This document shows, in pieces, positions 1 to 13,362 of a DNA stretch of 13,779 bases. Location: IMG/VR virus record IMGVR_UViG_2534682222_000007, positions 1-13,779 of that record, one strand, 5' to 3'. Both the position numbers and the translations under genes were made by a program. A model generated the notes under the pieces. That model saw only the letters and a list, made by a program, of their open reading frames with translations. It was not told where the DNA came from and made no database searches. The DNA comes from a virus (taxonomy: Duplodnaviria > Heunggongvirae > Uroviricota > Caudoviricetes). Every line of letters starts with the position of its first letter. Position 1 is the stretch's first letter.

Positions 1-1169
1 ACGCGACCCAGGATCAGGCCGTAACTGATGCCGTTGCGCAGCGTCTTCAGCGCGCGGCGTTGCAGACGGTCGATGCCGTTCTGCTCGTAGTACAGCGGGT
101 TAACAGTGGTGTTTGACCCGTTGATGATTTCGTTGGCCAGATCCAGCTCAAGGTTGATTGCAGTCCATGCTACTGAGTACCAGTAGTTGAACGGATTGCC
201 GTCCAGCATGTGGCCTGCCACCAGCATTTTGTTGCTCAGCCCACCTTCCGCGGCGGTACCGACGTAGTTGATGCTGTTATCCTGGAGCTGCTTTAGGAGC
301 GTGCCATTACCTTCGACCGGATACTCTGTAACCCCGTAACCAAATCGGTACGCCATCGGTGGCACCATGTTTGACGATCCAGGGTCGTTTGCCAGCGAGG
401 ACTGGAACGGGAACGCCATGGAAAACTCGCCTGCTGGGATGTTTGTTGACTCCACTCCCGCAAACACAGATTTGTTTTTGGTGGCGACCCACGCCGGGTA
501 GGTGGCGATCGTGGTGGTGACAAAGAAATACACCAGTGACGCCGGGCTGGTATACAGGCCAGTCAGGGTTTTAAACGTCGTCTCACCGTCCCACTCGCGC
601 GGCACCAGATACGAGAAGAATTTCTGGTAGGTGTTACCCAGAGAAATGTCTTCATCGATGAAGTCAGCCAGTGCAGCCACAGCAGCAGCGACAGACACGT
701 CGCCCAGCTCCAGCACGTAGACCGCGCGGGTAGTTCCCTGAGCCCAGAACGTGGTGTTCATCTCGATGATTTCGTTTGCCGCTACGGTTTTCACCGTACC
801 CATAACTGTTGCCGTTCCTGGGTCTGTAGCCAACGGATAAGTGAAGGCGGTAGAAGTGGTCACAGTGGCGGTTACGGCGCGGTTATAAGCTGCTGGAGTA
901 ACGCCAGAGACAACCAGCGGGATAGTGTTGCCAACGTTCCAGCCATGCGCTGCCGAGAGGGTCACCGTGACCACGCCGGTTGCCCAGGTGATAGTTGAAA
1001 TAGTTTTAGCCGGTGAGGTGATATCCTTCAGATCGTCTTTCGTCGTCAGGAGCTGGTACTCACCTGCAGCCAGGGTTGTTCCGCCCATGGAGATCATCGC
1101 GCCGGATTTGAGCAGCTGAGAGGGCTTCGGTGGATTGGTCACCGAGACGTTAATGTTAACAATTGCCAT
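1..1169 (-). CDS. Phage virion structural protein, partial (ATG at 1167-1169, C-terminus runs past window position 1); Ig-like Ala/Thr/Gly-rich domain near the N-terminus
   Basis: Manual translation of the minus strand from the ATG at 1167-1169 (MAIVNINVSVTNPPKPSQLL...) stays open to position 1 (about 389 codons). GGAG sits about 10 nt upstream. The gene is not in the supplied ORF track because it has no stop inside the window. Residues about 56-128 resemble the C-terminal domain of the 4554..5414 protein. Function (tail or neck) is not resolved. Confidence 0.5.
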   Translation of the reverse strand, partial: MAIVNINVSVTNPPKPSQLLKSGAMISMGGTTLAAGEYQLLTTKDDLKDITSPAKTISTITWATGVVTVTLSAAHGWNVGNTIPLVVSGVTPAAYNRAVTATVTTSTAFTYPLATDPGTATVMGTVKTVAANEIIEMNTTFWAQGTTRAVYVLELGDVSVAAAVAALADFIDEDISLGNTYQKFFSYLVPREWDGETTFKTLTGLYTSPASLVYFFVTTTIATYPAWVATKNKSVFAGVESTNIPAGEFSMAFPFQSSLANDPGSSNMVPPMAYRFGYGVTEYPVEGNGTLLKQLQDNSINYVGTAAEGGLSNKMLVAGHMLDGNPFNYWYSVAWTAINLELDLANEIINGSNTTVNPLYYEQNGIDRLQRRALKTLRNGISYGLILGR

Positions 1170-3505: not shown

Positions 3506-4537
3506 TCAGGCGCTGTACGCCATGGACAGGATGGTGATTGCTTCCGGACGAACTGCCCAGCCTGCGGTAGAACGCATTTCGGACAGAACATCGATGGCAC
3601 CACCAGCGATCGGCGTCGGAATCTCACGCGGCGCGGCCATGTCGGTAAACATCAGCGCGTTCGCGGCAAGAGACGGGGTCAGCTTGGCGAATTCGTTGGT
3701 GTTCACAGTCGAGTTGACCATTGGCACTTCGACCTCAGGGATGGTGATTACCACCGCATCGGTACCGCCAGCGCCAGCGCCGATCAATGTATCGTCATAC
3801 ACCCAGTCAACCTGGACGTTTGCGCCTTTCAGCACTTCTTTCACCGTGCCGCCGACGGTGTCAGTACCACCACCAGGACGCTGGTAAGAAGTCAGCTGAA
3901 CGATCTGCTGAATCTCCATGGCACCGAGGACGCGCTGCGGCCCCAGGATAACAACACGCTGCTGGCGACCCAGCTGCATGGTGCGGGTCAGTGCTGCCTG
4001 CACGTGGCCCAGAAGATATACCGCCATCTGCCCGTGGTCATAGGTTAGCACGGTGGTGTTGCTGTTGCTGTCAGGAGGCAGGGACTCGGTAGTCGCGCCA
4101 GCGGTGTTCAGCAGGCCTTCACCACCAGCAGGGTTCATGCCATACAGCAGAGCAGAGCGCAGTTGCTGGAAGATGCCCTGACGCATACCCAGACGCTGGG
4201 CTTCCGGCAGTGCAAAGTTCCAGTTACCGGCAGCGGCCATGTCATGGTGATCGTAGATACCACGGCAGCGGAACAGGTAGGTTGGGGTTGAAATCATCTT
4301 CGCATCCAGCGCCACGCTCGGCAGTTGGTTACCGTTACCGGACTGACTGGAAGTGGTCTGGGTGCGAATATCCAGGCGGCGCATGTAGACGTACTGATCT
4401 CCTACGCCGAGACGGACTTGCGGGTTACCGCTGGCGATGGTTTCAAACGCACCTGACGCCTGCTGGTAACCAATGATCATCTCCGGCGCGATGTACGACG
4501 GATTGACGATGGTGTAGCTGGGGGTAATTGCAGCCAT
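3506..4537 (-). CDS. Putative major capsid protein (343 aa)
   Basis: ATG at 4535-4537 with GGAG upstream. Size and position (after scaffold and decoration-like genes, followed by a terminator) fit a major capsid protein. Family assignment is from memory of similar phage clusters, not a search. Confidence 0.6.
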   Translation of the reverse strand: MAAITPSYTIVNPSYIAPEMIIGYQQASGAFETIASGNPQVRLGVGDQYVYMRRLDIRTQTTSSQSGNGNQLPSVALDAKMISTPTYLFRCRGIYDHHDMAAAGNWNFALPEAQRLGMRQGIFQQLRSALLYGMNPAGGEGLLNTAGATTESLPPDSNSNTTVLTYDHGQMAVYLLGHVQAALTRTMQLGRQQRVVILGPQRVLGAMEIQQIVQLTSYQRPGGGTDTVGGTVKEVLKGANVQVDWVYDDTLIGAGAGGTDAVVITIPEVEVPMVNSTVNTNEFAKLTPSLAANALMFTDMAAPREIPTPIAGGAIDVLSEMRSTAGWAVRPEAITILSMAYSA

Positions 4538-4553: not shown

Positions 4554-5414
4554 TTAAAGTAAGACCAGCGCGCAGCTGTCGGTGTTATTCCAGGTCAGGA
4601 AACCAGTCGCGCTGTCATAGCTGACAGTCTTGGAGTTGCCTGATTCGATGGCGAGCACTTTTACCGGCAGCGTGATGTCGGAAAGCGTAACTGCGCCGAT
4701 GGTGCCCTGCGTGGTTGCAGCGCCGCCTGGTGCAGTTGCCGGTGCATAGGTGAAGGTCGTTGTGTTCACGACTGAAAGCACGACTACTGTGCCGTTGTAC
4801 GCCGCAGGAGCGACGCCGCTGATTTTCACGTACTGACCAGCAGTCAGGCCATGAGCTGAAGCGGTTACCGCTGTCGCCACACCATTGGCATAGGTCACTG
4901 CTGTTGTCGCAATATCAGAACCGGCGAAACCGGCCGCCGCCGCAGTGGTGATCTGGTTGTTCACGAAGTCCCAGGCCAGAGGCGTTTTCACTGACGCGCC
5001 GGAGGTGCCAAGCGCAACAACCTGCGCAGAAGCTTTCAACGGAACGCGCATGTTGGAGCCCAGGCGGTAGTACGAAACGCTCATGCCTGATGCGTACAGC
5101 GGAACCGGTGACTGCGGAGTGGTCAGGCCGTTGTGAGCCTGATTGAAGACAGTGAAGCCTTCCAGCTCGGCAACAGACACAGCGCGACGGATGTAAGAAC
5201 CGCGAGGGCTTGAACTGGTGCCAGGCAGAAGCTCAGCAACTGGCAGACCGCCCCAGAGAGGTTTGTTTTCCGTTGCCGCCACAGTACCCGCCGCCAGGTT
5301 AAAGCGGTTAGCCGGGTCATCAAGCGCCACGCCCTGAATATAACCGTCGGACTGCACACCGAAGGAGCCAAGCGCATTCGTGGTTGCCATCGGGTTAAGA
5401 GATAAGTTAGCCAT
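4554..5414 (-). CDS. Putative head decoration / accessory structural protein (286 aa) with a C-terminal Ig-like domain
   Basis: ATG at 5412-5414, sited between the scaffold and capsid genes (the position lambda D occupies). The C-terminal region (...VTASAHGLTAGQYVKISGVAPAAYNGTVVV...TFTYAPATAPGG...) is Ala/Thr/Gly-rich and paralogous to the N-terminal domain of the 1..1169 protein. Confidence 0.45.
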   Translation of the reverse strand: MANLSLNPMATTNALGSFGVQSDGYIQGVALDDPANRFNLAAGTVAATENKPLWGGLPVAELLPGTSSSPRGSYIRRAVSVAELEGFTVFNQAHNGLTTPQSPVPLYASGMSVSYYRLGSNMRVPLKASAQVVALGTSGASVKTPLAWDFVNNQITTAAAAGFAGSDIATTAVTYANGVATAVTASAHGLTAGQYVKISGVAPAAYNGTVVVLSVVNTTTFTYAPATAPGGAATTQGTIGAVTLSDITLPVKVLAIESGNSKTVSYDSATGFLTWNNTDSCALVLL

Positions 5415-5429: not shown

Positions 5430-7052
<1,623 letters not shown>

Positions 7053-7061
7053 TTAATGCTC

Positions 7062-7892
7062 CTATGCTGATTTCATAGACGCCATGAACTTCTGCCCCTT
7101 CTGGGTCAGCATGTGTTCAGGAATACTCCGGAGGTTGTACAGATAGGTTACGTAACACCGGCAAAAAACCTCTTCTCCGGGCTGCGTAATTTCATCGAGA
7201 TAACCGGAAGGCCCCACCTTCACGTAACCGTTTTTTTGTGCCCAGTTACCGCGGATGAGATAGACCACCTTATCGCGCTCTTTGTGATCTTCCCGGTAGT
7301 CATAACCTGCCTGCCGCCAGTGACTATGCCACTCTGCAGCTATGGCGTTATTACTGGCAGCTATGATGTTGTCGATGTTTGCAATGAGTTTATGGTTCTG
7401 ATCAATCATCACCCGACGCGCTTCAAAATCAATTTGCAAGGCGCTTTTCTGAATGTGATCACAGTTGTAATTAACCCCGCTTTTGGATGATGGAGATAGT
7501 CCACCTCCAACGTAATCCTGCACAGGGATGCTGGTAGCCCACCCGCTAAATCTCTGGACTGTTTTGTTTATCGCGCCTGTACGATTTAACTTAATTAAGT
7601 CGGCGCTAGCCAAGATGCGTCTATCAAGCTCGCTTCTTAACTTAGGCTCCATGTAATTCAGAGTAAATCGAGACAAGCCTGGATGCCGATCCAGCGCCTT
7701 AGCCCTGTTTATCTGCATTTCATAGGTTGATCGAAGCTTATCTGACACCCTTGATATGTAGTCATCATGGGTTTCGCTTTCCGCCGCCTGGCGAATAATT
7801 CCCTGCCATCGCTCCAGCTCCTCTCTCGAGGTATAGCCATTGCGCAAGAAGAATTTAACCGCCTCCCTTACTGTTCTGGAAAATTTGCTCAT
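7062..7892 (-). CDS. Putative head morphogenesis / minor head protein (Mu F / SPP1 gp7-like, 276 aa)
   Basis: ATG at 7890-7892 in ATGA overlap with the portal stop. Position directly after the portal gene and a C-terminal CRC motif (EEVFCRCYVTY) that I recall as conserved in Mu F-like proteins. Confidence 0.55.
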   Translation of the reverse strand: MSKFSRTVREAVKFFLRNGYTSREELERWQGIIRQAAESETHDDYISRVSDKLRSTYEMQINRAKALDRHPGLSRFTLNYMEPKLRSELDRRILASADLIKLNRTGAINKTVQRFSGWATSIPVQDYVGGGLSPSSKSGVNYNCDHIQKSALQIDFEARRVMIDQNHKLIANIDNIIAASNNAIAAEWHSHWRQAGYDYREDHKERDKVVYLIRGNWAQKNGYVKVGPSGYLDEITQPGEEVFCRCYVTYLYNLRSIPEHMLTQKGQKFMASMKSA

Positions 7893-11370: not shown

Positions 11371-11432
11371 AATACTTACCTCACGTTGACATTATCGAAG
11401 CCCCTCAGTGAAGGGCTCCTGTAATGCCGCGA

Positions 11433-11957
11433 TCAGCCAATAAGTAATTCCGGCTGCGTTACCTGCATGATGTGCTCATGCTCGAGCTCCAGGACGCGCT
11501 TCTCTTTCTTCCGCTCGTTCATCAAACGGCTTCCGATCGTGCCTTTCAGCTTTGAGCGCGTTTCTTTGATGGCGTAGCGGTGCTGCATTTCTTCGCCCAT
11601 CGCCATGCGTCGGTTTAGCTGCTCGGCCATCCAGTTAAAGGCGGCGATGTATTGCTCTTTAATCGCGGTCGCCGTTTTTCCGGTGAAACCCATTACAAGC
11701 ATCATCCAGCCATCTTTCGTGATGTTGTACATCAGGCGCATTTCGCCTTTCTTATCGAGGTATTCAACGGGCTCAAAATTGAGCCGGTTAAAATCAGGGG
11801 AGCAATCTGACTCCAGCCGCTTGATAGTGCGAAGAACGTTTTTATGCGCCTTGCCGAAATAGCGGGCGATCTTCATGGACGTCGTGATGACCTTTCCGTT
11901 GGATGGCAAAACCATTTCGCGGAAGTCGAAGGCCGGAATAACTGACGGATTATTCAT
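11433..11957 (-). CDS. rha: Rha-family phage regulatory protein (about 174 aa)
   Basis: The N-terminal sequence (MNNPSVIPAFDFREMVLPSNGKVITTSMKIARYFGKAHKNVLRTIKRL...FNRLNFEPVEYLDKKGEMRLMYNITKDGWMMLVMGFTGKTA) matches my recollection of the Rha domain. The track ORF 11433..11993 starts on a non-ATG codon; the first ATG at 11955-11957 is preferred. Confidence 0.7.
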   Translation of the reverse strand: MNNPSVIPAFDFREMVLPSNGKVITTSMKIARYFGKAHKNVLRTIKRLESDCSPDFNRLNFEPVEYLDKKGEMRLMYNITKDGWMMLVMGFTGKTATAIKEQYIAAFNWMAEQLNRRMAMGEEMQHRYAIKETRSKLKGTIGSRLMNERKKEKRVLELEHEHIMQVTQPELLIG

Positions 11958-12091
11958 AGCGTCTTTACCTTTTAGAAAGTGAGCCTGTCTCACAGAAAAG
12001 CCGCCCGAGAGAGGTCGCCACCTATAACGGCATTTCTCAGGCTCGCTTACTGAAAGGCTCTCGTTGATGTACGCGTGAGATGCGCAGACAT

Positions 12092-12116
12092 AAAAAAGCC
12101 CGACCGAAGTCAGGCT
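12092..12116 (-). terminator. Intrinsic terminator downstream of Rz/Rz1
   Basis: Minus-strand RNA: 8-bp stem (one G-U pair) closed by a UUCG tetraloop, followed by UUUUUU (plus A-run 12092-12097); 20 nt after the Rz stop at 12136. Confidence 0.6.
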
Positions 12117-12135
12117 CTGTTATTTGGGTGACGAA

Positions 12136-12609
12136 TCACTTAAGACACTGCTCTTTGATGTAGTCCTGCATGCCGCGAATCATTTTGTCAGCGGTTGCGA
12201 TTCCGTCCCGGTGATCGAAATAATTCCGTCGAGCGTCTGGAGTAAGTTCGGGGGCTCCTGCATCATCCACGCCGGTGGAGGAGGTGGCTTTTGGCACTCC
12301 AGGGCAGGTTGCAGCGATGCGCAGCCGTTTAGCGCCAGAATCGACATCACGACGCAAATCGTTAATGGTCTTTTTAGCATCGGACAATTCCTTCGTGTAT
12401 TTGGCATCCAGTGCAGCGACATCGCGCTGACGGGTCTGCATGTCTTTAATGGTGGCGGTCGCCAGGAGGAGTTTCTCAGTGGCCTTATCGCGCTGGTCTC
12501 TGTAAGTGATGGCGTTGTCGCGGTAGTGGTTCACGAAGAAAGCCAGTGCGCCGATTAACGCCAGCACCAGCAACTGCAGCCAGTAACGCTTAACCAGTGC
12601 GCTAATCAT
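12136..12609 (-). CDS. Rz: Rz-type i-spanin (157 aa)
   Basis: N-terminal transmembrane segment followed by [12 protein letters not shown]...[15 protein letters not shown], closely resembling lambda Rz as I recall it. ATGA overlap with the endolysin stop. Confidence 0.85.
12180..12380 (-). CDS. Rz1: Rz1-type o-spanin lipoprotein (66 aa), embedded in Rz in the +1 frame
   Basis: ORF entirely inside Rz. Start re-set to the ATG at 12378-12380 (AAGGA about 9 nt upstream): [24 protein letters not shown]... with a signal peptide, lipobox-like LNGC, and the PPPPPAW motif characteristic of lambda Rz1. Confidence 0.8.
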
Positions 12610-13055
12610 GACAGGAACAGAGCTCGCTCTGCCTTGCGGCGATTCGTGAGCCCCGGCATCACCTTTCCGCCTGATTTATTCCAGCGCAGAAATTCATCTG
12701 CCGCGCCTTTTATATCGCCAGCATTCAGCTTTTTCAGCAGTGTAGATGTGGAAAGAGCACGCGACCCAACGTTGTAAGCGAACGACACCAGTGCGTCGAA
12801 CTGGCCTTGTGTCAGCTTCACCCTGACAACTTTCAGCACGTCATTCTCATAACCAACAAGCCCTGTTTTCAGAAGCCTGTCAGCGGTTTGCTGGTCGATA
12901 GTCATACCGCGCTTTACTGGCTTTCCGTCAACCGGATGGGTCCAGCCATAGCCGATGGTCCACGGCGCATCTCCCGTTCCGGGGTCGGGGTAAGCAGTCA
13001 GCCGACAACCTTCAAATTTTTTTATCAGAGCAATTCCGTCAGGACTGGTTTGCAT
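12606..13055 (-). CDS. R: Endolysin, T4/P22-type lysozyme (GH24), soluble (149 aa)
   Basis: Catalytic E-D-T arrangement in [26 protein letters not shown] and a C-terminus ([11 protein letters not shown]) like P22 gp19. The track ORF begins at a TTG (13082); the ATG at 13053-13055 with GGGAG 6-7 nt upstream is preferred, giving a 17-nt overlap with S. Confidence 0.85.
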
Positions 13056-13362
13056 CGTCAACTCCCGCCTTTTTTGCTGCAAGTTTTTTAATCAGATTGC
13101 CGATCGAATCGGTGCCGATGTATCCAATAAAGACGCTGGCTATGTAGGCGAGGTTGCTGCTCAGGCCGATAAAGTCCAGAAGGTCACGAACGAACCAGGC
13201 AATCATCGCGCACATCAGCGCATCAATTAGCGTTTTTGTTACCGCGCCGCCGTTATAGCGACCACGCAGATACGCCATGATAAAAGCCAGCATTGCACCA
13301 ATACCCTGCTCCTTGGCGGCAAGTAGCGCAGCGATGAAATCTTGTTTGTATGGCATTTTCAT
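13039..13362 (-). CDS. S: Class I holin, lambda S-like (107 aa) with a dual-start Met1-Lys2-Met3 motif
   Basis: [39 protein letters not shown]... is near-identical in pattern to lambda S as I recall it. GGAGG ribosome-binding site upstream. The track ORF (147 aa) is an N-terminal over-extension. Confidence 0.9.

Follow-up and report, generated by a model that had tools for sequence, protein, structure and literature searches.

It is well known that phage virion proteins can carry accessory beta domains, and Ig-like decoration domains in particular are familiar from phage virions, with T4 Hoc and the C-terminal domain of lambda gpV as examples. Such Ig-like accessory domains were reportedly described by Fraser and co-workers in 2006. 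They are small, dispensable and mobile beta domains that occur on capsid, tail and fibre, and they are thought to mediate weak carbohydrate adhesion. A second kind of small beta domain is the barrel of the endosialidases (PF12195, End_beta_barrel; 4hiz of phi92, 1v0e of K1F), whose host fold is the sialidase beta-propeller of a tailspike. In K1F this barrel holds one of three polysialic-acid binding sites, to which residues S460 and S468 belong, is a hotspot for host discrimination and tolerated most mutations (PMC12632334). A related domain, FCCH, is found in ubiquitin E1 enzymes (PF16190, E1_FCCH; 2v31, 4p22) and in siphophage tail tube proteins (gp39/gp13, FCWL1 9jlf_E, Mystique 9n71_B); solved structures of such tubes show the FCCH-type domain on the outside, where it lends the rings a petal-like outline (PMC13576161). 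The fold discussed here thus has precedents in endosialidases and, more recently (2025-2026), in siphophage tail tubes. We report it in two further virion proteins belonging to the same particle, a myophage tail sheath and a beta-tulip capsid cement protein.

The window analysed is a stretch of 13,779 nucleotides (virus record IMGVR_UViG_2534682222_000007) in which, according to the list of open reading frames, all long frames lie on the minus strand. Lysis genes come first; then follow the genes for the two terminase subunits (small, large), the portal, a Mu-F-like head protein, a NUDIX-protease/scaffold fusion (5430-7049), a protein of 286 aa (4554-5414) and the major capsid protein (3506-4537), and after these come four small head-tail genes and a gene that starts at 1169 and continues beyond the window edge. 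The product of 3506-4537 (minus strand) matches phrog_6671 (E 3e-182), phrog_264 "major head protein" (E 1.7e-7) and, weakly, the Pfam family Major_capside, and its homologue in Pantoea phage PdC23 is annotated as major capsid protein. The window shares 81% identity over 6 kb with three temperate Klebsiella phages, RothC, RothD and Chronis, while its remoter kin include the Yersinia vB_YenM phages and PdC23, of the genus Certevirus. It represents the structural module of a temperate Enterobacteriaceae myophage or prophage resembling Certevirus. Since an identical 286-aa protein is encoded on contigs of many bacterial assemblies, some exceeding 1 Mb, the window is most likely a prophage, of a type very common in Salmonella, E. 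coli and Klebsiella genomes. Our search of the literature on Certevirus, Chronis, PdC23 and Rac-SA53 yielded no work on their sheath or cement proteins.

The earlier note on this DNA had described the product of 1..1169 (minus strand) as a truncated structural protein; it is indeed structural, and its sequence identifies it more precisely as a contractile tail sheath. The 389 N-terminal residues present match phrog_205 "tail sheath" over residues 3-387 (E 8.1e-36) and are 81% identical to a 464-aa protein of RothC, the gene of which precedes small tail genes and the tape measure gene. Full-length sheaths of relatives measure 464 aa, so the window stops short of the C-terminus. No solved sheath was matched when PDB sequences were searched with this protein, either as a single sequence or as a 5-sequence profile. 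Residues 52-132 (774..1016, minus strand) form the insert of interest. In the sheath of Shewanella phage QDWS the stretch corresponding to residues ~52-128 is absent, and that of Rac-SA53 has a copy in this position that has diverged (E 1.4e-8). Matched stretches number 2-4 in each of four further phrog_205 sheaths (545-714 aa), and in three of the four the best-scoring stretch lies near the N-terminus, at residues ~50-160. The QDWS sheath (11414-12733) bears an insertion of its own, of ~85 aa, unrelated and located elsewhere, with two GSGYT(S/A)APTV(T/S)FS repeats. Sheaths may thus be able to take up different decoration cassettes, and to do so at more than one site.

The 286-aa protein (4554..5414, minus strand), encoded immediately upstream of the major capsid protein gene, had been called decoration-like, a label that our results bear out. 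Its modelled core superposes on solved cement proteins, and we assign it on this structural basis as a predicted trimer-type beta-tulip capsid cement protein that would bind the major capsid shell. The closest described counterpart is Pam3 gp6, a beta-tulip protein numbered directly before the capsid protein gp7, whose trimers sit on three-fold and quasi-three-fold axes and hold capsomers together by an N-terminal loop (PMC9942802). The window protein shares this gene order as well as an N-terminal arm predicted to be disordered, and the fold match together with these Pam3-like features supports the label. Unlike Pam3 gp6, the FCWL1 decoration protein, TW1, HFTV1 and the lambda gpD class, however, it possesses an extra 85-aa barrel (residues 165-249; 4668..4922, minus strand) placed late in the chain, with only two core strands still to follow (residues 252-285). 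The solved decoration proteins that it matched measure only 136-211 aa, and they are absent from the best 60 structural hits of the inserted domain itself.

Alignment with the cement homologues in Rac-SA53 (205 aa) and QDWS (198 aa) covers the sequence flanking residues ~165-249 but leaves this stretch itself without a counterpart. Searching with the window protein retrieved only sequences at least 87% identical, and relatives were therefore collected with the distant QDWS homologue; 110 of the 120 listed were 190-209 aa long. Eight relatives of 286-293 aa, of Burkholderia type, carry an insert at exactly the same point. These eight inserts represent two divergent subtypes of the same barrel superfamily, to which our family HMM is silent but which hhalign connects to the family with a probability of 96.3% (E 1.8e-9). 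By core identity, insert-bearing and insert-free relatives are interleaved, which indicates an insertion hotspot with repeated gain or loss. In each host protein, then, the domain is a cassette inserted into a loop of the host fold.

Two database records encountered in these comparisons deserve a remark. "Shewanella phage vB_Sb_QDWS" (OK094664.1) and "Hujiaoplasma phage zrk29-1" (OP650936.1) are both 47902 bp long and gave identical hit statistics, and the QDWS cement protein is 100% identical to a MULTISPECIES Pseudomonadota protein and 94-96% identical to Burkholderia proteins. For both records, the assigned host is open to doubt.

The two inserts were brought together by the earlier note, which aligned residues 56-128 of the sheath (786-1004) with residues 171-245 of the cement protein (4680-4904). 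Both sets of coordinates are correct on the minus strand, and each range falls within the insert delimited above. Composition-adjusted BLASTP aligns sheath residues 60-111 with cement residues 173-223 (23/53 identical, 43%; E 1e-7), and the Smith-Waterman score of the two segments is 142. As both segments are rich in Ala, Thr, Gly and Val, their similarity might be a matter of chance or composition. The BLAST low-complexity filter does mask part of the segment: tblastn of the domain against a phage collection matched query residues 2-43 only and, because half of the query is masked, found only the 10 close relatives. We nevertheless give virtually no credence to a compositional artefact, which the shuffle controls rule out: composition-preserving shuffles scored 44.1±7.4 with a maximum of 87, none of 5000 reached 142 (z 13), and the reversed-sequence control scored 39. 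A compact fold is also predicted with confidence by AlphaFold2 (AF2). Furthermore, a family HMM built from 46 instances of the domain in unrelated proteins, with both window copies left out, recognizes each copy over the whole domain length: sheath residues 52-132 with E 1.7e-25 (85 bits, HMM positions 5-84) and cement residues 168-244 with E 4.8e-24 (HMM positions 8-83). Both copies also match phrog_9998. The shuffled and reversed controls and the HMM E-values of about 1e-25 settle the low-complexity concern, and the two sequences are genuinely homologous. The shared motifs that had been pointed out, SAHG, SG..PAAYN and TFTY, correspond to near-invariant family positions (H, G, G, Y, N and F). 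The same HMM found no third match in the six-frame translation of the window and only two copies in the complete RothC genome.

The fold, in contrast, is not the one first proposed. The domain had been regarded as an Ig-like accessory domain (BIG2, I-set or FN3) duplicated between two structural proteins, a reading that its all-beta nature and Thr/Ala/Gly/Val-rich composition would fit and that the familiarity of Ig-like decorations makes natural. The AF2 model of the cement copy shows six strands (pLDDT 88.4, pTM 0.78), and the full-length cement model places the same strands at the same positions. When compared to all PDB sequences, a 48-sequence profile matched only endosialidases and ubiquitin E1 enzymes (4hiz, E 4.5e-4; K1F 1v0e, E 0.12; E1 9qgg, E 8e-3, this last aligned across the whole domain). 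The modelled cement barrel superposes on the endosialidase barrel, and lower-ranked structural matches are to barrels of the FAD-binding, riboflavin-synthase and EF-Tu domain-2 types. In Pfam, the cement copy reaches 19.8-20 bits with PF12195 (E 6.5e-4 to 7.7e-4), below its threshold of 35, and the sheath copy gives no hit to this model; PF16190 scores 17 bits against a gathering threshold of 29.5, in a host that is no E1 enzyme. Among the 48 instances, such sub-threshold matches concern End_beta_barrel in 11 and E1_FCCH in 10. No Ig-type family, on the other hand, is matched at E<=10, no Ig-like protein is named among the best 60 structural hits, and no two-sheet beta-sandwich is seen for Big_2, I-set or FN3 to share. 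Based on the PDB profile matches, the predicted strands, the structural hits and the absence of Ig-type Pfam matches, the domain of ~80 aa is modelled as a six-stranded closed Greek-key barrel of the endosialidase-beta-barrel/ubiquitin-E1-FCCH type rather than an Ig sandwich. The Ig-like fold is refuted for the cement copy, and the Ig-like reading as a whole is now highly improbable. The sheath copy presumably adopts the same barrel, as judged from its 85-bit match to the family profile. While the inserts resemble Ig-like accessory domains in being small, dispensable and mobile, they differ from those of T4 Hoc and gpV in being a closed six-stranded barrel instead of a two-sheet sandwich, and no sequence relationship to the latter was detected.

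The window copies also diverge from the endosialidases at specific positions, exhibiting the family-typical P..YNG where endosialidases have ..GVSG, and their hosts are a sheath and a cement protein instead of a tailspike propeller. No sialidase or propeller was found in the window with Pfam and phrog profiles. The cement homologues of PdC23 (pdc_05, 7015-7887) and of Yersinia phage vB_YenM_06.16-1 have nonetheless been deposited as "endosialidase". Since their sole link to endosialidases is the 80-aa barrel insert and the sialidase propeller is absent, this label is a domain-level misannotation, which the present analysis corrects. PdC23 further contains an extra small gene, pdc_07 (5656-5898), annotated as "Dec protein, OB-fold decoration", between the major capsid protein gene and the next head gene, a position occupied in the window by a gap of 68 nt only. 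PdC23 may thus carry two kinds of capsid decoration.

The barrel family proved very large and mobile, and it scores under the thresholds of the two Pfam models related to it. Comparing a two-sequence profile built from the window copies to 1.84 billion cluster representatives (clusters counted at 50% identity) gave matches to at least 2560 of them at E<=1e-3 and to 407 at E<=1e-10. The carriers are up to 6181 aa long and contain up to 19 matched stretches; the best 150 hold 593 instances with a median spacing of 87 aa, hence such carriers are tandem arrays. Foldseek searches of predicted viral structures retrieved cyanophage fibres, baseplate J-like and wedge proteins, S74-peptidase proteins and endosialidases. 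Overall, the carriers comprise fibres, baseplate proteins, tail tubes and other sheaths. The family overlaps the N-terminal part of phrog_9998 and repeats in phrog_701, phrog_5838, phrog_19630 and phrog_529; both window copies belong to it by their significant full-length matches to the profile built without them.

The two copies had been termed paralogous, as products of an old domain duplication or shuffling. Shuffling is supported by the relatives of both proteins that lack the domain; local duplication is not. Within a set of 613 family instances, BLAST with the sheath copy places the cement copy only at rank 177 of 569, and BLAST with the cement copy places the sheath copy at rank 423 of 603; hundreds of other instances are thus closer to either copy than its partner is. 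Those nearest to the sheath copy include same-position copies in other sheaths, whereas those nearest to the cement copy are found in tandem-array proteins. Rac-SA53 has the insert in its sheath and none in its cement protein, and the sheath copy is therefore the older of the two. Codon-aligned nucleotide identity between the segments is only 51%, in line with the divergence remarked on in the earlier note. Together, the ranks, the nucleotide identity and the Rac-SA53 pattern point to two separate acquisitions from a large mobile pool, or else to a very ancient divergence, and not to one copy having been copied into the other. A true intragenomic pair, copied within the phage lineage and then diverging fast, would account for the copies residing in the same genome and for RothC having just these two, but the ranks, the grouping of the older sheath copy with same-site copies of other sheaths and the low nucleotide identity make it very improbable. 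A recent intragenomic duplication was rejected on the ranks and the nucleotide identity.

As relatives of both proteins work without them, the inserts are accessory. Compared to RothC, the sheath copy shows a dN/dS of 0.14 (67% amino acid identity) against 0.10 for the rest of the sheath (85%), and the cement copy 0.06 (85%) against 0.06 for the rest of its protein (93%); these values are rough because dS is saturated (>1). Both inserts are clearly under purifying selection while changing about twice as fast as their host proteins.

What these barrels do can be approached from their described relatives. The earlier note proposed surface exposure of both proteins, which is plausible by analogy with the same fold facing outward on solved siphophage tail tubes. 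Both would accordingly point outward from the virion surface, with several hundred copies on each particle. K1F residues were mapped by the PDB profile alignment, using a 1v0e numbering offset of 244 that puts serines at both positions. S460 thus corresponds to the S of the family SG motif and S468 to the N of YNG, the most conserved loop positions, equivalent to S199 and N207 in the cement protein and to S88 and N96 in the sheath. This fits a glycan-contact loop, although these residues could instead serve a purely structural purpose in turns. By analogy, the two copies may serve as weak multivalent binding modules for surface polysaccharide, such as host capsule, LPS or environmental glycans, which would promote encounter and retention ahead of receptor engagement by the tail spike, much as has been suggested for the Ig-like decorations of other phages. 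Weak multivalent glycan binding is favoured because of the exterior FCCH domains on tubes and the K1F polysialic-acid site on the SG/YNG loop. Taken as a whole, we consider it reasonably probable that the sheath and cement protein bear separately acquired, outward-facing accessory barrels acting as weak multivalent glycan binders; the functional step by itself, polysaccharide binding by hundreds of copies per virion, is put forward more tentatively, at somewhat less than even odds. The tolerance of the K1F barrel to most mutations and the occurrence of the same fold in E1 enzymes, where it is unrelated to glycans, are counterpoints to adhesion.

The main rival is a purely stabilising role, in which the domain would be a ligand-free clamp or "petal" that stiffens the extended sheath and the capsid lattice through extra inter-subunit contacts. 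One host being a cement protein, the job of which is stabilisation, speaks for such a role, and for the FCCH domain of siphophage tubes the published description goes no further than an exterior "petal", without a ligand (PMC13576161). Purifying selection is compatible with either role. Most relatives of both proteins, however, assemble without the insert, the family is commonest as tandem arrays in fibres, baseplate and tailspike-type proteins, which are host-contact parts and not lattice, and the sole member with a described function binds polysaccharide (PMC12632334). We thus regard a purely structural role as rather unlikely, if still a serious competitor to the glycan-binding one.

Extending the adhesive reading, the barrel family might constitute a general phage lectin module, a non-Ig counterpart of Hoc/BAM-type adhesion domains that here coats both head and tail. 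We advance this as a speculative and doubtful generalisation. If it were true, the whole particle would be a multivalent glycan-binding surface by way of cement trimers and every sheath subunit, specificity could be read from the conserved SG...P..YNG loop, and the family would be a large unnamed class of virion adhesins, comprising no fewer than 2560 clusters (50% identity) and lacking a Pfam model of its own. Should the domain bind glycans, it would offer a handle on understanding and engineering whole-particle adhesion in Klebsiella and Salmonella phages.

As an instance of accessory beta domains, the present case is fairly ordinary domain shuffling, and the finding is incremental and no surprise. 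What is new is that one particle bears this fold both in its myophage sheath and in its beta-tulip cement protein, that the family is very large although it scores beneath the cut-offs of the two Pfam models related to it, and that the "endosialidase" annotation on the PdC23 and Yersinia phage homologues is corrected. The analysis also assigns functions to two "hypothetical" prophage proteins and shows that this large mobile barrel family extends to myophage sheaths and capsid cement proteins.

Two other loci of the window drew our attention. The product of 5430-7049 (minus strand) consists of a NUDIX hydrolase domain (Pfam E 8.7e-17) fused N-terminally to a head-maturation-protease/scaffold-like protein. 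Its middle is a highly charged segment of KADAEE type, with a 75-nt tandem repeat of 1.9 copies at 5931-6069, and annotations of its homologues vary, including "TolA protein" and possibly "glycosyl transferase". Downstream of an endolysin-like frame (12606-13082) lies a 157-aa frame (12136-12609, minus strand), in which the list of open reading frames places an 80-aa frame (12180-12422, minus strand) nested out of frame. The latter features an LNGC lipobox-like motif and a proline run, an arrangement which is that of a classic Rz/Rz1 spanin.
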